A DNA stretch of 64,000 bases. It comes from a virus (taxonomy: Duplodnaviria; Caudoviricetes). A model generated the notes under the pieces. The model had not been told where the DNA came from. It did not search any database and saw only the letters and a program-made list of their open reading frames with translations. The translations under genes and the position numbers were made by a program. The DNA lies in IMG/VR virus record IMGVR_UViG_3300006805_000023; one strand, 5' to 3'. Shown here piece by piece: positions 3,271-57,355 of this stretch (position 1 is the first letter of the stretch; each line of letters opens with the position of its first letter).

Positions 3271-3695
3271 TGCCACGCACCCAAGTCAAACTAGGAACCG
3301 TCAAACCGGGATGCCGCGTCTTTGTCTCCGAGGACAACGAGACGGCTGCCTTTATCCGCTCCACCACGCCACTGGAGGACACTATGTGGGACGAGGATGA
3401 TGAGGTCTGGATCGAGACCGCGACCGACCCTCGCCTGCTGATCACCGTTTACTGCAAGCACGTCGATCCCTCAGTGCGCTTCAACGGGGACGCCATCAAC
3501 ATCGTCAACCCGACGTCCATGCTGTTCAAGATCTTCAAGATGACGCCGTATCCGGAGCCCAAGAAGAAGGTCGATAACCTGTTGATCTACGGGACGGTCT
3601 GGCTGCAGAACCTGGAAGAGAAACGGTTCCTGATCCTCGACGCTGGTGCAGCCCGTGACGTCTATTTGTCCGATTTGATGCCTTACACTCAGTGA
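3267..3695 (+). CDS. Hypothetical protein (142 aa)
   Basis: ATGA-coupled ORF. Confidence 0.75.
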   Translation: MMPRTQVKLGTVKPGCRVFVSEDNETAAFIRSTTPLEDTMWDEDDEVWIETATDPRLLITVYCKHVDPSVRFNGDAINIVNPTSMLFKIFKMTPYPEPKKKVDNLLIYGTVWLQNLEEKRFLILDAGAARDVYLSDLMPYTQ

Positions 3696-45304: not shown

Positions 45305-45982
45305 ATGCAGATCCTACAGCACACGTTCCCCGTCGCAACCGGGCTTACCGCCAAAATCGCGGTGCGCCTTCATCAAGATGGCAAGGTCAATCAGGCCTCG
45401 TTCACCTTCATCAACAAGCCGAACCAGAACCTGGATGGCAAGACGGTCCACACCGACCCTCTGACCATTTCTCTCCAGGCCTCCGCTGACGGCATCAACA
45501 ACTGGGTCGAAATCCTCGCCCCATTCGCGGTGCCAGGCAACGGCCAGATCACCAAAACCGTCACCCTTACTGCCAACTACATCAACATCTTGGGCAAGAC
45601 GGCGAACGGCAAAGGCGGCTACTGCCGTCTCCACTGCTCGTACGAAGGCGTGCAGGATGGTGGTCAGATCGAGGTCATCACCTTCGGCAAGCAGGGCTAC
45701 GGCTTTGACGGCGGCACCGGTCAGGGTCAGACCCTCGCCCAGCCTCCAGGCTACCCAGAGGGTACCTTCATCGAAGCCGAAGAGTCATCCAGCTCCAGCA
45801 GCTCGGAGAACTCCTCATCCAGCTCGTCCGACTCATCCGCATCTTCGAACAGCTCCAGCAGCTCGGTCAACAGTTCATCCAGCTCCAGCAGCTCGGTCAA
45901 CAGTTCATCCAGCTCCAGCAGCTCGTCCAAGTCCTCGCAGTCCTCGTCCAGCTCCAGCAGCTCGTCCAGCACCTCCGCCTAA
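45305..45982 (+). CDS. Putative virion decoration protein, paralog B with poly-Ser tail
   Basis: MQILQHT...ASADG...GYGFDGGT, then a poly-Ser tract (about 45785-45979). Confidence 0.85.
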   Translation: MQILQHTFPVATGLTAKIAVRLHQDGKVNQASFTFINKPNQNLDGKTVHTDPLTISLQASADGINNWVEILAPFAVPGNGQITKTVTLTANYINILGKTANGKGGYCRLHCSYEGVQDGGQIEVITFGKQGYGFDGGTGQGQTLAQPPGYPEGTFIEAEESSSSSSSENSSSSSSDSSASSNSSSSSVNSSSSSSSSVNSSSSSSSSSKSSQSSSSSSSSSSTSA

Positions 45983-46078: not shown

Positions 46079-46582
46079 ATGGCTAAAACTACCACACCCT
46101 ACGAACCCCAAATTAACGACATCGCTGCTTATCGCGGCTCAACTGGACTCGTACTCAGCCTCGGCGGAGTCGGCTCCATGCAAGACGTCCCACTCGGCTC
46201 CATGCAAGACGTCCCACTCGGCTCAACCGAGTATCTCAGCCACGAGCCCACGGTTCTGATGGTTGATCTCAGCATCATCAGCTCCGGCATGGACCGCCAA
46301 CTCCACAGCTTCCGAGTCCCGACCCGTTTGGTCACTTATGTCGGCAAATACAACCCAGAACTGGATGCGGTGGCTGCTGCACCCGTAGCAGTGCCAATCA
46401 AGGAACTGATCGTCGCCGACCTTCTCGGAGCCCCCGACGTCGGGATGACGATCTCACAGCTAGCAGCCTCTCTGCAGCGTCCGTCGGCTGCTATTCACAG
46501 CTCTCTGCAGAGCCTAAAGACTGCTGGACGGGTGGCTCAGCGGGAGACGCTGGAGTGGCATCTGCTGCCTCAGGCTGCGTAG
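46079..46582 (+). CDS. Protein with C-terminal winged HTH
   Basis: MTISQLAASLQRPSAAIHSSLQSLKTAGRV. Confidence 0.75.
   Translation: MAKTTTPYEPQINDIAAYRGSTGLVLSLGGVGSMQDVPLGSMQDVPLGSTEYLSHEPTVLMVDLSIISSGMDRQLHSFRVPTRLVTYVGKYNPELDAVAAAPVAVPIKELIVADLLGAPDVGMTISQLAASLQRPSAAIHSSLQSLKTAGRVAQRETLEWHLLPQAA
46172..46219 (+). repeat. Exact 24-bp tandem duplication (GSMQDVPL x2)
   Basis: ggctccatgcaagacgtcccactc x2. Confidence 0.95.
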
Positions 46583-46943
46583 GCTCGAACACCTCCCAGA
46601 ACCGCGACGGCGGGACCAGCTCAAGGAGTGTGGTCCTGCCGTCTCTCACGTTAGTGTTCATTCGCTCGGCAAACCGAACTTCGAGGTTGCAGCCACGGGA
46701 CTGCACCCAGTCGCCGAACACCCAGACCTCATCGCACTTGGCGAGCAACCAGAGGCAGGATGCCATGGCGCGGTTGTAGTTCTCGGCGTCGTGCGGAATC
46801 ACCTTCCCGAAGGCTAGAATGGGTGAGACCGGGATGAAGCCAGCCTCGAAGATCAGCTGGCCGATCTTAGCCTGAGCGTCGAAGTTGGCAGCCGGGTCGC
46901 CATGAGTCGTGAACGGGTGGCAGATGTAGATGGACTTTCTCAT
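46491..46943 (-). CDS. DUF4406/nucleoside 2-deoxyribosyltransferase-like protein
   Basis: IYICHPF...PVSP...LLAKCDEVWVFGDWVQSRGCNLE. Confidence 0.8.
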   Translation of the reverse strand: MRKSIYICHPFTTHGDPAANFDAQAKIGQLIFEAGFIPVSPILAFGKVIPHDAENYNRAMASCLWLLAKCDEVWVFGDWVQSRGCNLEVRFAERMNTNVRDGRTTLLELVPPSRFWEVFEPTQPEAADATPASPAEPPVQQSLGSAESCE

Positions 46944-46946
46944 GGC

Positions 46947-47294
46947 TTAGCGGGTTTCGACGACGAAGATGGCCCAGCTTGAGCTGGTAGCGATAGCCTT
47001 AGGGAGAAGTTCCCAGGACGCCGACTGGTTGAAGTCACGGTCGAAGTAGTGCTGCTTGTCGCGTGGGATGTAGCCGATGTCGCGACCACCGTGACACACC
47101 TTGATGGCCTTGGCGTCGTAGGGGTTGGTCGGCTCGCGCTCCAGCGTGACGCCTTTGGTGAGCTGGTACGGATCGACGTCCATGTGCTTGGAGCCGACGA
47201 TCGGAATCTTGACGATCCGGGCTGGCTCACCCTTGATCACGATGTTCGAGGCCTGCAGTTCTGGAGCGTGCAGCAGCTGTAAAGTGTCCCACAT
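46947..47294 (-). CDS. HIRAN domain protein
   Basis: IVGSKH...LEREPTNPYDAKAIKV...IGYIPRD. Confidence 0.9.
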   Translation of the reverse strand: MWDTLQLLHAPELQASNIVIKGEPARIVKIPIVGSKHMDVDPYQLTKGVTLEREPTNPYDAKAIKVCHGGRDIGYIPRDKQHYFDRDFNQSASWELLPKAIATSSSWAIFVVETR

Positions 47295-47296
47295 AG

Positions 47297-47450
47297 TTTT
47301 ACAAGTTTAGTGCAGAGTGACCTGCGTTTGGTTTGTGTTTAACGAGTTGCCTCGTTCTCGAAACTCGTGGGGACGATACGCTCCCACGTGCCCGGATAAG
47401 GATGTTCCGCGCACCAACAGTGTCCGCGTTGGCGGTGTGGCCGCAAGAGC
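47297..47450 (-). ncRNA. Putative omega/reRNA overlapping the tnpB 3' end (5' boundary approximate)
   Basis: Hairpins at 47376-47398 and 47341-47356 (AACGAG-GCAA-CUCGUU); GGTCAC right-end-like motif ending at 47317. Confidence 0.55.
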
Positions 47451-48426
47451 CACACTGGAACTTCTCATTCGTCCGGTTGTCATTTGCTCGGTGACTGCAT
47501 TCAGGGCACGTCTGCGAGGTGTAGGCAGGGTTTACTCGGACAAACAGAACACAGTTCTCTCTGGCCTTTTGTTCAACCCTACCCAGCACAGAGGCATAGC
47601 GCCAAGGAGCAAGGAGTTTACGAAATTGTTTGCCGCGCTTGGGCTGCTTGCCTATCTTCAGGCCAGTCAGATCCTCGACCGCAACGGTTTTGAGAATACC
47701 CCAGGGAAGTTGGTTAACGCAGCGGTTCAGGTAACGATCCCGCGTGGTGCGAGCCCTACGCATCCCCTGGCCCCCTGGCTTCGCCATCCTGACGGCCTTG
47801 CCGATGGTCTTGAAGTCACGACCGATCAAGTTGCCGTCACTAGTTGCAAGAACAGTGCTGACCCCGCAATCCACGCCCAGCTCCGCACCCTCGGACCGCA
47901 GTGCGAGGTCCGGAATGTCAATCCAGAGGATGGCATACGCCCCTCTGTTTGTGAGACTAAGTTCGCAGCCTTTGGCAAGCACTGCCCCAGGCTTGCTCAA
48001 CCATTTATTAAGAACCTTCGTGGACTTCGCTGGGACGTTTATGCGGCAACCACTGCGCAGCGTGGAAACGCGCAGCCAGGTGTCGAACGCCTTGCTTGAC
48101 TTCCCGAAGGTGATGGAGACACACTTCTGGTTGACTTTGACACCGCGCTTGACCACAGGGCGGGTGGCCTTATTGACCGTGGCTCGTTGGGATTCCCGCG
48201 TCGCCTTGACTATTCCGAGCGCCTGTCGCAAAGCTGCAGCTCTGTAGTTGAACGGTAAGTGCCCGAGCGGCACAACGTCAGCAGTGGCCTTATCGAGACC
48301 GCCTTTGTTACCCCACAGAAACTTGATGTAACGGTTGCAGGCGCTCAAAAAACGCGACTCCACCGCCCGCAGCTTGCGCAGTTTGGACTCGGTGGCGTAA
48401 AGTTTGATTTTGACAGAGCGCGTCAT
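47299..48426 (-). CDS. tnpB: TnpB RNA-guided endonuclease (IS200/IS605 family), no TnpA nearby
   Basis: RuvC-I GVDCG, RuvC-II VEDL, NPAYTSQTCPEC, CGSC...NADTVGARNI. Confidence 0.93.
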   Translation of the reverse strand: MTRSVKIKLYATESKLRKLRAVESRFLSACNRYIKFLWGNKGGLDKATADVVPLGHLPFNYRAAALRQALGIVKATRESQRATVNKATRPVVKRGVKVNQKCVSITFGKSSKAFDTWLRVSTLRSGCRINVPAKSTKVLNKWLSKPGAVLAKGCELSLTNRGAYAILWIDIPDLALRSEGAELGVDCGVSTVLATSDGNLIGRDFKTIGKAVRMAKPGGQGMRRARTTRDRYLNRCVNQLPWGILKTVAVEDLTGLKIGKQPKRGKQFRKLLAPWRYASVLGRVEQKARENCVLFVRVNPAYTSQTCPECSHRANDNRTNEKFQCGSCGHTANADTVGARNILIRARGSVSSPRVSRTRQLVKHKPNAGHSALNL

Positions 48427-48469
48427 CGTTTGGTGTTCGCCTTAGAAAACAAACTCTACCTATTGGAGA

Positions 48470-48742
48470 ATGAAACAAGCAGCAGTCCAGGGTTCAGGGT
48501 GTCAAGGTAACACCGGGCCGTTGTACCTGATCGACTACGTGCCACAAGACCGGGTGCTGCTCAGCGGAGTCCCTCTGGCCACCAAGGCATCGCGAATCGG
48601 CTCCAGCGAGGTCCGTGAGGGCGATGAGCGCGTCCTAGTCGCCAACCGTTTCCCGGTCGCCGGTGAGGGTGACGCCATCGAGGGTCCGGTAGTGAGTGGC
48701 ACTATCAACCAGGATACCAGCGACCGTGTGCTGATCGGATGA
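48470..48742 (+). CDS. PAAR-like spike tip protein (gp5.4-like)
   Basis: VLLSGVPLA...EGDERVLVANRFPVAGEGD...GTI...RVLIG; TACCTAT 6 nt upstream. Confidence 0.7.
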   Translation: MKQAAVQGSGCQGNTGPLYLIDYVPQDRVLLSGVPLATKASRIGSSEVREGDERVLVANRFPVAGEGDAIEGPVVSGTINQDTSDRVLIG

Positions 48743-48760
48743 TTTCTTGCTGTCAACCCT

Positions 48761-49651
48761 ATGATTCGATCCAACGTTGATTCCCTGCCGCCAGAGTTCA
48801 CCGAGTTCACCCTCCCATCAGGTGGACTGCCTTACCGAAACAACTTCCCGGACTTCCCGTCTGTAGCCAGGGTAGGGTCATTCACGTTCAAAACCGAGTG
48901 TATCTTGACCACTAACATGGACCTGATGGAGAAGATGGCCAGGATCACCAGAGACGTATTCCAGAACCTTCCGCCGAACTTCCCGATCGACGACCTCCTC
49001 GAAGAGGATCAGATGGTAGTCATGGCGCTGGCACGCGGCCAGACCTACGGCGAGTCTTACATCTTTGCCACTGTTTGCCCCAGCTGCAAACACCGCGAGT
49101 CTCACGAAATGAAGATCCCGGAGCAGCTCCCAGTCGTGAACTGGAAGTTCGACAGCCTGGAAAAACTGGAGGAACATCTGACCGTGGCGCTTCCCTACTC
49201 CAAGGACGTTGTGCGTCTGCGCCCCATTACGGTCGGCATGGGTAAGAAGAGCGTCAAGGGTAACGAGCCCGCCAATGCCCCGGCAGAGGGCGAAGCCGCC
49301 CCAGCAGAGGCGAAGCCGCGCTCGTCCAAGTCGGCCATTGTGAAAGCCACAGCGGTCGCAGCTGCGCCAGACAAAGTCAGCCTGAGCGACCTCCCCAAAG
49401 AAGCGTCGGACTTCTTGTTCGGTGTCGCTCGTAGGATCGAGTCGGTCAATGGCACCACGCCGGACTCCTTGCAGGAGGCAGCCGACTGGCTGTTGCGTTT
49501 GTCGGGTCGTGACCGGGTGGCTATCGAGGAACATCGAGTCAAAACCGCGTGTGGGATCAACTATGACATCCCAGTGAAATGCGATAACTGCGCTAACCAG
49601 TTCACGGCGTTCCTGCCGATTGCGTCGTCATTTTTTCGTCGAGGCCAGTGA
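48761..49651 (+). CDS. Baseplate hub/assembly chaperone (T4 gp26/gp51-like)
   Basis: FTLPSGG; CPSC; LPYSKDVVRLRP; CDNC...SSFF end. Confidence 0.75.
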   Translation: MIRSNVDSLPPEFTEFTLPSGGLPYRNNFPDFPSVARVGSFTFKTECILTTNMDLMEKMARITRDVFQNLPPNFPIDDLLEEDQMVVMALARGQTYGESYIFATVCPSCKHRESHEMKIPEQLPVVNWKFDSLEKLEEHLTVALPYSKDVVRLRPITVGMGKKSVKGNEPANAPAEGEAAPAEAKPRSSKSAIVKATAVAAAPDKVSLSDLPKEASDFLFGVARRIESVNGTTPDSLQEAADWLLRLSGRDRVAIEEHRVKTACGINYDIPVKCDNCANQFTAFLPIASSFFRRGQ

Positions 49652-50142: not shown

Positions 50143-53028
50143 ATGACAGTCCTGGTCAACAAGTCAACCGCACCGGTCACGGTGTTCTACTATGATGCCT
50201 CCAATCGTGAGCAGCAGACGGTCATAGATCCTGGCAAACAATTCGTCCTGAACGGAGCGGTTCACCCGTCCACTCAGGCTCTGATCAAACGTAAGGTGCT
50301 CGTGGTGAGTTCCAGCACCGTCACCGATCCACGCGCCAACACCCTCGCTTGGGGGACTCCACTCGTCTGGGCTGGAGGTTGGCGTCCCAACGCTTTGTAC
50401 AAGGCCGGATTCGTTGTCCTGCACAACGGCAAGACCTTTGTGGCGATTCTGGATCACACGTCCGTCAACCCTCCGTCGGAGTCCGATCAGCGCTGGGATC
50501 TGTTTTCCCTTAAGAGCTTCGCGGCGGCATTCGACTTCCTAGTCACGGTCGCCAACGATGGCTCCGTGGTGTCGTATGACGCAACTGCTGATGAATGGAA
50601 GCTCGCCAAGATTGGCGACGCCAATGTTCAGGGGATCTCGGCCAGCAAGATCACAGACATGGCCCAAGTCTTGGCTACGCTGATCGCCTCAGCAGGTGGC
50701 ACGATGACTGGCCCTCTGGTCCTCGTAGGAAACCCGACCGAGAACCTACACGCGGCACCAAAGCAGTATGTTGATGGCTTCCTGTCGAAGGACGGTGGCA
50801 CGATGACCGGAGCCTTGGTCCTGAACGGCAACCCAACTGCGGCCCTGCACGCCACTCCGAAGCAATACGTCGATACGTTCGTCTCTGGTGGTGGCGGCAC
50901 GATGACTGGACTATTGACGCTATCCGGCAACCCGATCGAGAGCCTGCATGCTGCTCCCAAGCAGTATGTTGATGGCTTCCTGTCGAAGGCTGGTGGCACG
51001 ATGACTGGTGACCTGACTCTGAGCGGCAACCCGTCCGCAGCCCTGCACGCAGCACCGAAGCAATACGTTGATGGCTTCCTGCCAAAGGCTGGTGGCACGA
51101 TGACGGGAGATCTGGTCTTGTCCGGTAACCCGTCCGCAGCCCTGCACGCCACTCCGAAGCAATACGTTGATGGCTTCCTGCCAAAGGCTGGTGGCACGAT
51201 GACGGGCGATCTGGTTCTGACTGGTAACCCGTCTGCGGCGTTGCACGCCACTCCGAAGCAGTATGTTGATGGCTTCCTGTCGAAGGCCGGTGGCGCAATG
51301 ACTGGTGCGATCACTGGCGCTCATGGCCTGCTGCCGCTCGCCGGTGGCGCGATGACCGGTGATTTGATCCTGTCGGGCAGCCCCTCAGCGGCATTGCACG
51401 CTGCCCCGAAACAGTACGTTGACCTGCGCCTTCTCAAGTCCGGTGACACCATGACAGGGCAGCTCAATCTGCTGTCAACCACCCTGAACGCTGGGACTGG
51501 ACTCTACGAGACGTCTGATTATGGCGCTCCTGCCTGGAAATCTGGGCTCCTGCAGGTCAGTTATCCACCGACTTACATAACCGGCAGTCACACCGCCACA
51601 GCGACCGAAAGCATCTTCGTCTTCCGTGGCTATCAGGAGTCAACCCTCAACTTGAGCACCAACGCCCCATTCTCGTTCAAGGAAATGACTGTGACCAACG
51701 ATGGCCAGGCCAACCTCTACGTGGTGGGCAGCTCCGAGACGGTCGTGATGGCTCCCGGCGAAACCCTGACCCTCCTACCATCCGGAACGGACTTCATTGT
51801 GTTGTCTCGCGGCTTGGTCCAAGACGTCGGAGCTGTCCTGGTGCTCTCTTCCATCGGCTCCGAGTCGGGAGGTACCAAGAACGTGACCTTCAGCATCTAC
51901 GACACCTCTAAAGAGACCACGGCGATCACCGTGGTGGCAAATCCCTCAGTCGGCGTCCTGCGCTTCACTGTGGGGAGCGCCCTGAACATCATGCTCGGCT
52001 CAAAGATCTTCGTGACCGGCACCGGCACGTATGATGGCGAGTATTTGGTACACGACGTCTCAGGCTCCAACATCGACGTGCAGACCAGCACCCCGTTTAC
52101 GATCTCCAAAACCGGCACTATGGGGGTGACCAGGGTTGCAGCACGCAGCAGCACGCTGCCTCTCCTAGCCTTGGTCTCCGACACCGCGCAGGCAGCCTGG
52201 GGTGGCGCATCTGGAGCCGTCCTCTCAATGGTGAGTGGCGGGGCTTTCCAGGCACGTTCACCGACCGGCAACGGCTATCGTCTTGACAGCACCGGCAGCA
52301 GCTTGGTCCTGAACCTCGACGAGCAGTTCGTCGATTATCGCCTGCTGTACGTTCACCTGCTCACCATGGGCAGGTCGTCTCCGGTCCGCTCAACCTTGAT
52401 CAGCGATGTGGCACAGCTGGCTGTCGCCCTCACCAGCTCCTCTGACAACGGCGGGTTCCTGCAGATCGAGCTGGCGAGCGTTGACGGGTTCGAAGCCGGA
52501 GACTTGGTGACCCTGGCTGGCACATCAGGCGATGGCGACTACACAATCACAGCGGTCCTCACCGGACCTCCTCGAATTCGCCTGAGCACCGCGTACTTCG
52601 CGATCACCACTGGCACGCTCACGAACAACATGGCGCTGGTCTTGACAGCGACCGAGACCGCCGGTCTGGTGGTAGGCTCGTTTGTGAACCTCAAGAACCT
52701 GCCCTGCCTTGGCGCACAGCGTGTGACCAGAGAAGTTAAGGGCCTGACTGGTACCACGATCATCGTCAAAGACCCGTTCGAGGCGTTCAACAACGCGCTG
52801 GGCAAGGTCGGAGTCTCGGAGCAGGCCTGCATCGCCAAGGTCGAATTCCTGGAAAACTCATCGAGCAGCTCCTCCAGCAGCTCCATCAAGTCGTCGCAGT
52901 CGAGCGCCAGCTCCGTCAACTCCTCGTCCAGCTCCAGCTCCAGCTCCGTCAACTCCTCATCATCGTCCAGCTCGGTCAACTCATCGTCCAGCTCGGTCAA
53001 TTCGTCCTCGTCCTCGTCGTCACCATAA
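50143..53028 (+). CDS. Tail fibre protein: CBM5/12-like module, 33-aa repeats, FCCH-like barrels, poly-Ser tail
   Basis: WRPNALYKAG..VLHNGKTF; GGTMTGxLxLxGNPxxxLHAxPKQYVD repeats; TAGGTAT 5 nt upstream. Confidence 0.9.
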   Translation: MTVLVNKSTAPVTVFYYDASNREQQTVIDPGKQFVLNGAVHPSTQALIKRKVLVVSSSTVTDPRANTLAWGTPLVWAGGWRPNALYKAGFVVLHNGKTFVAILDHTSVNPPSESDQRWDLFSLKSFAAAFDFLVTVANDGSVVSYDATADEWKLAKIGDANVQGISASKITDMAQVLATLIASAGGTMTGPLVLVGNPTENLHAAPKQYVDGFLSKDGGTMTGALVLNGNPTAALHATPKQYVDTFVSGGGGTMTGLLTLSGNPIESLHAAPKQYVDGFLSKAGGTMTGDLTLSGNPSAALHAAPKQYVDGFLPKAGGTMTGDLVLSGNPSAALHATPKQYVDGFLPKAGGTMTGDLVLTGNPSAALHATPKQYVDGFLSKAGGAMTGAITGAHGLLPLAGGAMTGDLILSGSPSAALHAAPKQYVDLRLLKSGDTMTGQLNLLSTTLNAGTGLYETSDYGAPAWKSGLLQVSYPPTYITGSHTATATESIFVFRGYQESTLNLSTNAPFSFKEMTVTNDGQANLYVVGSSETVVMAPGETLTLLPSGTDFIVLSRGLVQDVGAVLVLSSIGSESGGTKNVTFSIYDTSKETTAITVVANPSVGVLRFTVGSALNIMLGSKIFVTGTGTYDGEYLVHDVSGSNIDVQTSTPFTISKTGTMGVTRVAARSSTLPLLALVSDTAQAAWGGASGAVLSMVSGGAFQARSPTGNGYRLDSTGSSLVLNLDEQFVDYRLLYVHLLTMGRSSPVRSTLISDVAQLAVALTSSSDNGGFLQIELASVDGFEAGDLVTLAGTSGDGDYTITAVLTGPPRIRLSTAYFAITTGTLTNNMALVLTATETAGLVVGSFVNLKNLPCLGAQRVTREVKGLTGTTIIVKDPFEAFNNALGKVGVSEQACIAKVEFLENSSSSSSSSSIKSSQSSASSVNSSSSSSSSSVNSSSSSSSVNSSSSSVNSSSSSSSP
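50695..51450 (+). repeat. Seven full 99-nt (33-aa) tail-fibre repeats plus one short unit
   Basis: Visible in both DNA and protein. Confidence 0.9.
52858..53022 (+). repeat. Poly-Ser C-terminal tail
   Basis: Directly visible. Confidence 0.9.
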
Positions 53029-54548: not shown

Positions 54549-57355
54549 GCGCGGCCTTGCTGCTACAGAAACACCGCCGGAGGCGCAAAGCGTCTTCCGT
54601 ACCCAAGCCTTGCCCAGAAGAAGGCCAAGAGCCAGACAACCTGACCGAGTCCTCGGCATGGGTGGCAAACGTCCTAATCCCGGACGCTGGCAAGCTGATC
54701 CTGCTGCCGGTCCTCGACACTTATCAATCAAATGGGGTCGCGTTTCACGCCAACTCCCCAGGAGGCAGGATGCTGCCGATCTATTCAGTCCTTGCCAATC
54801 GCGCAGTCCTCCAGAAACACTTCCCCTGGCTCGGTCGCGAGATCAACCGGCTGAAACAAGAGGACCTCGTGGACGAGTCTGAAATGTCGATGGTGCAGAA
54901 ACGGGTGTTCGAGCGCAGCGGGTTCGGATTCTGGATCGTTAAGGGCCAGCGCGGCTACTTCTATGGCAACCCGTTGGTGCATAAGCTGTTCATGCGCGAC
55001 GTCACAACCGAAGAACTGCGCAAGCTGTCTCACATCTTCAAAGCAACGGCTGCCGGACTTCCGCAGGAGGTAGTGTCCATTGAGGACTTCACAGGCCAGG
55101 ACGACCTGTCCTTGAAGGGACTGGTCAACTCAGGCAGGCACGCCACCCCGAATGAGGTGGCGTTTTTGATCTACGACCAAGGAGACTTGGAAGGAGTCAA
55201 CCCAAAACAGCTGGCTGACCTGCTGGATTACCCAGCGGTCACTGATAGCCTTAGGCACCTCCAGGGGCCGTCACAACTCAAGTTTGCTCACAACGTCGTG
55301 CTGGCGCTCAAGTACTCTATGAGCAAAGGGGTGGAGGTGGAGATCGACAAATACCCGCCTTACATCGCAATGGCACTCCGCAAGGTCGGCGAGAGCCTGG
55401 AAGAGGCCTCCTTCAGCAAGCTGCTTGGCCTGACCCAGTCCAATGGTGGCTACCGTTACGGCGGTATGCGCAAGGTAAACGACCGGTGGGTGATCGACCC
55501 CGCCATCAACGGACGTCTTGACAACAGCCGTTTCATCGTGACCTCGATGCCATCCTGGAGGCTCGGTCAAGACGGGTTTCCTGTGATGCCCTACGTCTGC
55601 AAATCGGCTCCAGAGCGCAGCACCACTGGCATGAAGCAGGTTGGGTTCGTGCGCGTCACTAACCAAGGCGGGTTTTTGCGCAAGCTCGCTGGTAAACTCA
55701 TTCCGCAGATCCGGGCGGCAGAGCCCGACGTTCAGGTGTTCTGCAGCTGTCTGTCGGCGGAGTCAGTTGTATTGATGAGCGACGGCACCTATCGCCCAAT
55801 CGCTGAGGTCAGGGTGGGGGACAACGTGATCACCCACAAGGGACGCTCACGCAGAGTCACCAAGGTGGCAGCCCGTCAGGTCAGGCCAGACGAGAACGTG
55901 TATCGCGTAAAGGTACAAGGCTTCCCATTTGAAATGACTGTGACCGGCAACCACCCGTTCTACACGCTCCGAGGTAACGACAAGTGCCTGTGCGGCTGCG
56001 GGCAGCTCCTACAGCGTCCAAAGCGCAGTGCCTGGTCGCCGGAACTGCTCCTAGGGCGTCGTTTCATTCAGGGCCATGGTGCACGCCCAGCAGTTGAGCA
56101 GGACCACTCAACTGGCAGGTTCTCGTGGATTGACGTGGATAACCTTGAGCCAAACGAATGGTTCCTCTCCCCATGGCAGCAGTCCGGGTGCGCCAGCATG
56201 AGCAGGAGTCTGGCAAGGCTGTTGGGATATTACGCGGCGGAAGGCTCCGTTGCAACCAGAGGGACGACGGTTAGCTTCACTCTCAACATGAACGAGTGGG
56301 ATACCATCGGCAACGATGTGTTGAGGCTCTGCCACAATCTCGGCCTTAAGGCGCGCAGGAAGCAGTCAGGCGACCACAACTGGTTCAACGTTTACGTCTC
56401 AGACAAGAAATTCCGCGACCAGTGCGTGTCCCTGGCGGGCACCGGGTCCCGCACCAAGAAATTGGCTAGCAGCTTGATGGACCTCCACCATGAATCACTC
56501 GTAGAACTGCTCCTAGGCATGTTACTAGGAGATGGCACAGTCGGTGGTGTGAGTGGTGGAAAACGTCAGGGACGAGTCAGGTACCACTCAACCAGCAGAG
56601 ATCTTGCCAGCCAGGCCCAGACCATCATGAGCAGGCTCGGACTGCGAAGCTCCCTGTCCTTCTCCAGGAAGGCCACGAAGCCAAGGCAGGCACGCAGCAA
56701 GCGCGAGGGCAAAGTGGTTACCCTTAACCAGTCGGCTTGTTGGCAGGTCACTCCTGACCCAACGGCCTGTTCATCCCTGCGTCGCCTGATGCGCTCAGTA
56801 ACGGGCGGTAAGGACTCCATGCCGGACAACCCCGCAGCACAGCGCAGCGTTAAATTCGTCCCGAAGGAGGGACAACTGCGTGCTATGCTCAAACGCGAGA
56901 AGGTTGACTTTGACGGACTCGTTTACGACTTGACTGTCGAGGAGGACGAGTCGTTTGTGGCGCATGGGGTCGCGGTTCATAACTGTCCCGACTTCAAGTA
57001 TCGGTACCACTGGGTGCTGTCCCAAATGGGCGCAGCCGCGAAGCCGTCCGGAGCCGGTGGAGAGGCCACCAATGCCCCTCCCAACAAGACCAACCCGTCA
57101 TTCAGGCCATCGCTGTGCAAGCATCTGGCAGCCTGTGACCAGTTTATCGACTTTGGCAACGCCGACTTCAGGAAGATGCTGCGCAAGGTCGGTAACTCGC
57201 CGGTCCAGACTACACAGCCAAAGCGCGATCCGGTGATTCGCCGGAACGCGCCAGTCAGAGCAGCCCCGACACCACCAAAAAACGGCGATCCGAAGCCTGC
57301 TGATCAAGGTGTTACTCCTCCAGAAGCTGCTTCGGTGTCACCCCGCCTTGCCTGA
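54545..57355 (+). CDS. SWIM zinc-finger protein interrupted by an intein
   Basis: Spliced product reads VFCS-CPDFKYR...SLCKH (CxC...CxH). Confidence 0.85.
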   Translation: MSAALLLQKHRRRRKASSVPKPCPEEGQEPDNLTESSAWVANVLIPDAGKLILLPVLDTYQSNGVAFHANSPGGRMLPIYSVLANRAVLQKHFPWLGREINRLKQEDLVDESEMSMVQKRVFERSGFGFWIVKGQRGYFYGNPLVHKLFMRDVTTEELRKLSHIFKATAAGLPQEVVSIEDFTGQDDLSLKGLVNSGRHATPNEVAFLIYDQGDLEGVNPKQLADLLDYPAVTDSLRHLQGPSQLKFAHNVVLALKYSMSKGVEVEIDKYPPYIAMALRKVGESLEEASFSKLLGLTQSNGGYRYGGMRKVNDRWVIDPAINGRLDNSRFIVTSMPSWRLGQDGFPVMPYVCKSAPERSTTGMKQVGFVRVTNQGGFLRKLAGKLIPQIRAAEPDVQVFCSCLSAESVVLMSDGTYRPIAEVRVGDNVITHKGRSRRVTKVAARQVRPDENVYRVKVQGFPFEMTVTGNHPFYTLRGNDKCLCGCGQLLQRPKRSAWSPELLLGRRFIQGHGARPAVEQDHSTGRFSWIDVDNLEPNEWFLSPWQQSGCASMSRSLARLLGYYAAEGSVATRGTTVSFTLNMNEWDTIGNDVLRLCHNLGLKARRKQSGDHNWFNVYVSDKKFRDQCVSLAGTGSRTKKLASSLMDLHHESLVELLLGMLLGDGTVGGVSGGKRQGRVRYHSTSRDLASQAQTIMSRLGLRSSLSFSRKATKPRQARSKREGKVVTLNQSACWQVTPDPTACSSLRRLMRSVTGGKDSMPDNPAAQRSVKFVPKEGQLRAMLKREKVDFDGLVYDLTVEEDESFVAHGVAVHNCPDFKYRYHWVLSQMGAAAKPSGAGGEATNAPPNKTNPSFRPSLCKHLAACDQFIDFGNADFRKMLRKVGNSPVQTTQPKRDPVIRRNAPVRAAPTPPKNGDPKPADQGVTPPEAASVSPRLA
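55748..56983 (+). mobile_element. Intein (412 aa) with LAGLIDADG endonuclease
   Basis: Starts CLSAESVVLMSDG, ends VYDLTVEEDESFVAHGVAVHN, +1 Cys; LLGYYAAEG and LLGMLLGDG. Confidence 0.93.

Follow-up and report, generated by a model that had tools for sequence, protein, structure and literature searches.

We analyzed a lone tnpB gene in the window, the 64,000-nt stretch of the IMG/VR virus record IMGVR_UViG_3300006805_000023, and found that it forms, with a predicted guide RNA in its own 3' end, a compact cassette of ~1,137-1,142 bp (~47297/47302-48438) inserted between two phage genes, at a site that is empty in related phages (labels such as L001, L002 and L088 denote contigs of relatives). 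On balance, we consider RNA-guided, free-standing homing during co-infection with insert-free relatives the probable, if far from certain, route by which this cassette spreads; its expression, its transposon-associated motif (TAM) and its cleavage activity are predicted. A preliminary description, made by a model from the letters of the sequence, had already read the locus as a homing element. The lone and intact TnpB, the existence of tnpB-free alleles and homing as the most economical route to persistence hold in our analysis, whereas the element boundary and the guide given there do not.

The TnpB gene and its transposase-less family

The tnpB coding sequence (47299..48426, minus strand) encodes 375 amino acids (aa) and is the single tnpB copy in the window. 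Its product matches Pfam PF07282 (Cas12f1-like TNB domain) at 1.7e-18 and two PHROG 'transposase' families, and the Pfam search gave no match to PF01385 (OrfB_IS605). A sequence search of the PDB returned Cas12f/TnpB chains, with D-E-D aligned with the RuvC segments of Cas12f. Both the RuvC triad (D186/E251/D335) and the CxxC...CxxC zinc finger between RuvC-II and RuvC-III (C307, C310, C325, C328) are intact, as had been noted from the sequence, and all seven residues are invariant in an alignment of 28 proteins (the window protein and 27 metagenomic relatives, 31-63% identity).

The AlphaFold2 model of the protein, which was built on the family alignment, is confident (pLDDT 87.5, pTM 0.74) with the exception of residues 352-375. 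Over its whole length, Foldseek matched this model to AsCas12f (2.6e-17), to the IS607 TnpB of ISFba1 (8iaz, 2.9e-14) and to the ISDra2 TnpB (8h1j, TM 0.61/0.62), and the TM range to Cas12f, ISFba1 TnpB and ISDra2 TnpB is 0.59-0.66. Judged by sequence and model, the gene is a TnpB with a complete nuclease, a full-length WED/REC/RuvC fold and intact catalytic residues, for which cleavage activity is predicted. It is not a CRISPR-Cas12f, since there is no array and ordinary phage genes begin 43 nt and 4 nt away.

Antisense to tnpB, a 260-aa open frame runs along the plus strand of the window (47317-48099), and longer antisense frames occur in L097 (576 aa) and L110 (366 aa). A 2026 preprint claims that the reverse strand of cyanophage/host tnpB encodes a protein (10.64898/2026.02.14.705889).

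The family is of the IS607 type (serine recombinase), not of the IS200/IS605 type, which the preliminary description had missed. Many relatives have the IS607 arrangement, in which a ~195-aa gene with a helix-turn-helix and a Resolvase domain (PF00239, 7.3e-16), the tnpA of these relatives, ends at the tnpB start; it abuts tnpB in L097, L110, L111, L102, L104, L014, L136 and others. We found no serine-recombinase tnpA in the 64-kb window by tblastn (best E 0.5), in agreement with the earlier call of a lone TnpB. A left end with TnpA-binding repeats was also looked for at the locus and is absent, only 12 nt being available. IS607 elements insert at or behind GG and end in GG (PMC13565253); the left junction here reads CTAAGG-C|G and the right end AAACTTG, not GG, and the ends of the family read AAC followed by CAT, TCT or TTG. 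From its sequence, the cassette is a transposase-less derivative of an IS607-type element and not a complete IS607. Hence, having neither tnpA nor a left end, it does not transpose by itself, and homing or plain vertical descent remain as options.

In a maximum-likelihood tree of 66 family proteins, the window copy pairs with L001 (64% identity, support 100/100) within a clade of 11 copies (91/99) that has a core of nine (99/96). All of these copies lack tnpA, all are on phage-like contigs and they occupy different loci; they are 45-64% identical and retain both the catalytic residues and the covarying RNA described below. Two neighbouring clades mix tnpA-linked and solo copies. Relatives of the protein are generally found on large phage-like contigs, at many different loci, and the TnpB of the window itself was found on contigs of up to 218 kb, among them L002, a 185-kb ENA contig that is the same genome as the window and carries an identical cassette. 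A DNA search of a phage database with the region gave no match, protein matches there were below 30% identity, and a viral-contig search with the baseplate protein found no relative.

In IMG/VR, two copies of this TnpB family also occur at different loci on single large phage contigs (L012/L016, L013/L019 and L008/L022). Between L012 and L016, DNA identity is 81% over 1.13 kb, and the flanks of the two copies differ.

Empty site, guide RNA and predicted target

In the window, tnpB is followed by a HIRAN-domain gene and preceded by a divergent 90-aa gene. The HIRAN protein has four close homologues (62-80% identical), and on every contig with such a homologue (L088/L089, L090, L091 and one more) the 90-aa gene and the HIRAN gene are 15-34 nt apart with no tnpB. 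The empty site, for which a comparison of related phages had been suggested, is therefore found at the same locus. Three of the empty sites are readable as sequence and the fourth is known from its gene map; L090, L091 and L088 alike have TTTCTA, 7 nt and ATG. The L088 site reads CAT-cccggatacctaagctgctgttttctaaggc-tct-ATGTGGGAC, and the filled site of the window, with the insert in parentheses, reads CAT-tctccaataggtagagtttgttttctaaggc-(GAACACCAAACG ATG ... CTAAACTTG TAA AA)-CT-ATGTGGGAC. In a BLAST comparison of L088 with the window, the flanks are 70-80% identical and synteny breaks at 48439 and 47296. Hence, by these breaks and the empty-site readings, the inserted cassette extends at most over 47297-48438 (minus strand), and the reconstructed empty site of the window would be TTTTCTAAGGC joined to TAAAACTATGTGG. 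What the empty-site phages attest is an earlier, empty state of the site; they do not attest that they themselves are current targets.

Directly 5' of the insert lies CTAAGGC (48439..48445, minus strand), 13 nt before the tnpB ATG, which is the ribosome-binding site of HIRAN in the relatives and, as a candidate only, the TAM position. Everything between the left edge of the insertion and the tnpB ATG is the 12-nt leader GAACACCAAACG (48427..48438, minus strand), which leaves no space for an IS607 left end or a promoter; a sigma-70 promoter scan of 46400-48900 found none. Since the insert lies between the AAGG ribosome site and the ATG of HIRAN, tnpB took over this ribosome site and presumably the promoter.

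Some solo relatives (L172:1520-1562, L175:1064-1106, L093, L004 and L008) have a promoter-like left end in the 40 nt before the tnpB ATG, consisting of TTGACA/TTTACA, 17 nt and GGCATAnnAT and ending 7-10 nt before the ATG. It comes without a ribosome site, and this sequence pattern suggests leaderless tnpB mRNAs. The window and L001 lack such a left end.

The last ~130 nt of the tnpB open reading frame (ORF) are a conserved structured RNA, which lies almost wholly inside the ORF. That RNA structure overlaps the tnpB 3' end had been proposed before with two hairpins; covariation in hairpin 1 and a terminal hairpin before AAC bear this out, and we found three hairpins, all on the minus strand. 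Hairpin 1 (47366..47388) is CGUGGGAGC-GUAU-CGUCCCCACG within codons G348..P353, hairpin 2 (47342..47355) is of the ACGAGG-CA-ACUCGU type and varies in sequence among relatives, and the terminal hairpin 3 (47312..47325) is GCAGG-UCAC-UCUGC. The 139-nt RNA of the window folds at z = -2.3 with these three hairpins. Rfam 15 gave no match at E <= 1 in 46500-49000, so there is no RAGATH-18 there.

All family members have a hairpin GGGAGC-N6-GUCCCC within the codons for G..(S/V)P. In 20 relatives (counted without the window and L001), the six pairs of hairpin 1 make up 114 cells that are 100% paired and include 26 double (compensatory) changes; none of 500 shuffles was as good (0/500), and slid controls collapsed. 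After hairpin 1, the order in the family is a variable hairpin 2, a terminal hairpin, AAC plus three bases, and then unrelated sequence. In 14/30 relatives, this AAC is immediately preceded by the end of a helix of at least 5 bp; at 533 decoy AAC sites taken from these genes, the rate is 8.4% (p = 4e-8). The AAC lies 88-147 nt (mostly 105-126) past the DAD motif, and the position of the stop codon in the relatives varies between 63 nt ahead of the end and 3 nt beyond it. Since the stop codon wanders relative to the RNA end, the protein tail encoded by the RNA region (residues 352-375) is unconserved and disordered.

Pairs of copies in different contexts place the right end as well. L102 and L104 hold 99%-identical, 2,004-bp tnpA+tnpB elements in different contexts, both ending at AACTCT, and the three differences between their last stems compensate one another; a search for a crossover dinucleotide of a serine recombinase, present at each of the two ends of these elements, found none. 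In L012 and L016, two copies in one phage, similarity is lost right after CCTAAC. For the window, we compared its tail with that of L001, in an unrelated context, by local alignment. The best alignment, TGCACT-AAACTTG / TGCATTCAAACTTG, has TTG as its last match in both tails, with agreement over the following 14 nt no better than chance. Hence, this match and the synteny limit put the right end between 47297 and 47305. On the sequence, the end is most likely 47302, with a tail ACTAAACTTG (47302..47311, minus strand) in which AAC (47307-47305) is followed by the three bases 47304-47302, and the tnpB stop codon abuts this position.

Counted from this end, the predicted guide would be TAAAACTATGTGGGAC(ACTT), running from 47301 downwards across the HIRAN start codon. 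The predicted guide/target TAAAACTATGTGGGACACTT (47282..47301, minus strand) covers the tnpB stop, the 4-nt spacer, the HIRAN ATG and the first four HIRAN codons, and so reaches into the gene itself where the earlier target had been the region upstream of HIRAN. The 16-mer of the predicted guide is unique in the window, with a 13/16 match at 3377-3392 inside an ORF that is due to chance. Searching IMG/VR with this 16-mer gave two hits, in unrelated contexts and attributable to chance, and searching IMG/VR with the predicted empty-site pattern gave no hit.

The 20-mer guide TCTGCACTAAACTTGTAAAA (47316-47297) had followed from taking GGTCAC as the end motif, with the ORF reading six codons past the right end. 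GGTCAC is located where it was said to be (47322-47317), but it consists of the end of the 5' arm and the loop (TCAC) of hairpin 3. Hence, as this motif is part of the terminal hairpin, the boundary at 47317 and the guide derived from it are rejected. Instead of passing its end by six codons, the ORF runs through the whole RNA scaffold and stops against the likely right end. Of the 20 bases of TCTGCACTAAACTTGTAAAA, 14-19 are insert sequence that is absent from the three readable empty sites; these bases form the 3' arm of the terminal hairpin and the family-wide AAC+NNN tail. The guide predicted here would lie ~15 bases from the earlier placement.

The spacings in the preliminary description are exact, with 43 nt between the tnpB ATG (48426) and the divergent ATG (48470) and 4 nt between the tnpB stop (47299) and the HIRAN ATG (47294). 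Its HIRAN call also stands: the gene 4 nt behind the tnpB stop (46947..47294, minus strand, 115 aa) matches PF08797 at 2.3e-10 and has no ribosome site of its own. The divergent 90-aa gene (48470..48742, plus strand) adjoins the baseplate-hub gene and is kept in all relatives (69-81% identity). Its label as PAAR is unconfirmed by Pfam, PHROG or Atlas; its homologues lack any Pfam domain, and its Atlas model is poor (pLDDT 0.32).

Three further differences or features were seen nearby. L088 has an extra 128-aa gene (L088:8360-8746) between the HIRAN gene and the DUF4406/DUF7768 (nucleoside 2-deoxyribosyltransferase-like) gene. The window lacks this 128-aa gene, which makes it the second gene within 1 kb of the tnpB site that only one of the two phages has. 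A tail-fibre-like protein (window 50143-53028 and 45305-45982; L002:7220-7718) has GGTMTG..HA.PKQYVD repeats and a poly-Ser tail, and nearly all differences between the two assemblies of the window phage fall inside these repeats. An 861-aa protein at window ~55700-57100 (L002:1171-3756) has Hint/LAGLIDADG intein signals.

Homing and the alternatives to it

Known TnpB enzymes process their own transcript into an omegaRNA, take as guide the flank past the right end and cut the TAM plus flank, that is, the empty site (PMC8612924, PMC10278001, PMC10055086). In the homing that we propose, the cassette would be transcribed from the promoter of the HIRAN operon and translated from the captured ribosome site, and TnpB would cut its own mRNA to release an omegaRNA whose guide is the 16-20 nt just past the right end (TAAAACTATGTGGGAC..., 47301 downwards). 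Upon co-infection with a close insert-free relative, the complex would recognise a TAM at the CTAAGGC position together with the guide sequence and cut inside the first HIRAN codons of that relative. Recombination repair from the cassette-bearing genome would then copy the cassette in, and its flanks would be co-converted. With TAM and target held apart by the insert, the carrier itself would escape cutting.

Sister cassettes of the family, from different samples, were informative here. We found that L172 (1382-2731) and L174, and likewise L175 (388-2751) and L176/L177, are 100% identical over tnpB and 107-455 nt of upstream flank; beyond these tracts, the identity gives way abruptly to 11-22% mismatches, most of which fall on every third base. 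The switches are sharp breakpoints of recombination next to the cassette. Such tracts would be the pattern expected of co-conversion in homing. They are known from the sister cassettes alone; L002, the other carrier of the window cassette, is the same genome. Together, the retention of catalytic residues and covarying RNA throughout the all-solo clade and the sister cassettes in identical tracts favour, at the level of sequence, an active and selected system. An intact nuclease with a predicted guide to its own flank also suits a selfish element better than a regulator that has been domesticated.

Several points weigh against homing of the window cassette. The mosaic tracts of the sister cassettes could also arise by ordinary recombination, and the members of the clade are at different loci, which allelic homing alone cannot explain, so that some other movement is required at least occasionally. 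The empty-site phages that were found reach only 70-80% DNA identity, and L088 has TCT where the window has TAAAACT, a mismatch to the guide beside the presumed TAM. Hence, these phages may be neither cut nor good recombination partners. No near-identical tnpB-free allele was seen. The TAMs of tested IS607 TnpBs are AGGAG and GAGGG (PMC11061315); a shared TAM motif could not be read from the 5' flanks of the relatives of the window cassette. The right end carries an uncertainty of ~5 nt: on its own the terminal match between the window and L001 is modest (p ~0.07), and a covariance model of hairpin 1 plus the end found hairpin 1 of the window at 13.2 bits, did not reach the right end and did not place the boundary.

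Some of these points would suit a stranded relic, that is, an IS607-type element that lost its tnpA and left end, is inherited only vertically, keeps its nuclease and RNA intact because the loss was recent, and has no role in spread. The 12-nt leader leaves no left end or promoter, both assemblies with the cassette are one genome, and a near-identical allele without tnpB was not seen. We regard this as unlikely, because the 11-copy solo clade, at 45-64% identity, keeps its catalytic residues and covarying RNA and so points to long-term selection without a linked tnpA, and because the sister cassettes show fresh identical tracts across diverged flanks.

Somewhat less likely still, the same cutting of the HIRAN start of relatives could be kept as a weapon for destroying or excluding competing phages in co-infected cells, a role that some free-standing homing endonucleases have, self-copying not being the main benefit. 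The cassette is built into a phage operon and uses the phage's own expression signals, at 70-80% identity the known relatives are too distant for gene conversion to be easy, and the killing of competitors by such enzymes is described in a review (PMC13565253). Against this, the guide mismatches the known relatives beside the presumed TAM, and there is no other target in the window or IMG/VR beyond chance.

It is improbable that a serine-recombinase TnpA encoded elsewhere, in the rest of the phage genome or in the host, mobilises the cassette in trans, with TnpB restoring it after excision. The different loci of clade members in different phages mean that some transposition-like events must have occurred, tnpA-bearing relatives exist, and our tnpA search covered 64 kb of the genome, which is at least 218 kb in size; however, the 12 nt before the ATG leave no room for the multiple TnpA-binding repeats that an IS607 end has (PMC6188088).

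Finally, a right end at GGTCAC (47317), six codons before the ORF end and with TCTGCACTAAACTTGTAAAA as guide, which predicts an empty allele containing TCTGCACTAAACTTG, is very improbable: CAC-TCT resembles the AAC-TCT ends of one subfamily, CAC is near the modal distance from the DAD motif (111 nt vs 113) and TCT stands just after TAAGGC in L088, but no hairpin precedes CAC as one does the family ends, GGTCAC is itself within hairpin 3, TGCACTAAACTTG (the block TGCAyT(C)AAACTTG) is common to the window and L001 in an unrelated genomic context, and the three readable empty sites leave only 7 nt, not ~26, between TTTCTA and the HIRAN ATG.

With homing retained as the preferred reading for the window, a wider proposal can be made tentatively for its lineage (at least 11 members, phage-borne and without transposase). 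This lineage may be a self-sufficient RNA-guided homing element of large phages, made of a ~1.1-kb nuclease with a guide RNA in the tail of its ORF, which would borrow expression signals by slipping between a ribosome site and a start codon and would act in co-infection as a natural gene drive that drags short flanks along.

Significance and relation to known systems

Few genes in nature are as abundant as tnpB, and Cas12 descends from TnpB. Solo copies are the majority, and there is debate over what lets them persist. Homing in co-infection has been shown for the protein-guided endonucleases of T4-type phages. For TnpB, homing and a plasmid gene drive have been published (PMC10055086; 10.1101/2025.02.20.638934; review PMC13565253). 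The literature thus already contains phage tnpB, solo tnpB, TnpB homing, a plasmid TnpB gene drive and, as an idea, 'non-restorative homing' into phages that co-infect; our search of it found no report of TnpB homing shown by experiment in phages. The present locus is a natural test case, with an exact filled/empty pair in related phages and a cassette that is unable to transpose by itself; its clade diversified only in phages, and sister cassettes stand in identical tracts within diverged genomes. Its value as a test case is good because the filled and the empty sites are both in hand. The nuclease and the guide RNA together take up only ~1.14 kb, and a cassette this compact also has practical appeal for building genome-editing tools.

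Among known systems, the window protein resembles the IS607 TnpBs that use a reRNA (ISFba1, 8iaz; PMC11061315) in its size class (~360-390 aa), fold (2.9e-14), RuvC triad and zinc finger, in having relatives linked to a serine-recombinase tnpA, in a guide RNA at the 3' end of the element, and in insertion behind a G-containing, ribosome-site-like motif (the tested TAMs of this group are AGGAG/GAGGG). It differs from them in that the cassette has neither tnpA nor a left end, its RNA is not RAGATH-18 and is almost wholly inside the ORF, its end is not GG, and protein identity is only ~14%.

With the ISDra2 TnpB-omegaRNA of IS200/IS605 (8h1j, 8exa; homing PMC10055086), it shares a RuvC nuclease that is predicted to be RNA-guided, an RNA that overlaps the tnpB 3' end, a predicted guide in the flank past the right end, and a TAM (a candidate one in the window) 5' of the left end, so that the empty site would be the target. 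The partner of ISDra2 is a Y1 HUH transposase, whereas that of the window family is a serine recombinase. Homing by ISDra2 restores the element after its excision by TnpA on a sister chromosome; the window cassette has no excision, and its proposed target is another phage genome.

TldR proteins are likewise phage-borne, lack a transposase and descend from TnpB with a guide RNA. TldRs have lost RuvC catalysis and have guides to host promoters, whereas the predicted guide of the window protein is the local flank; since its triad is intact, it is not a TldR.

The TnpB gene drive of plasmids (10.1101/2025.02.20.638934) is similar in that replicons are present in many copies per cell, and element-free copies are cut and then repaired with the element copied in, as is proposed for the window. 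That drive was shown by experiment for tnpA-bearing IS605 elements on plasmids, whereas the drive proposed here would act through a tnpA-less cassette on a lytic-type giant phage.

A parallel to the proposed homing would be the free-standing homing endonuclease genes of T4-like phages (SegA-G, Mob), which are also small nuclease genes between conserved phage genes, vary in presence and absence, and are expected to spread in co-infection with co-conversion of their flanks, which the identical tracts around the sister cassettes fit. In contrast to these, the target of the window cassette would be read by an RNA guide plus TAM and not by a protein, and self would be told from non-self by the insertion itself and not by substitutions in a nearby gene.

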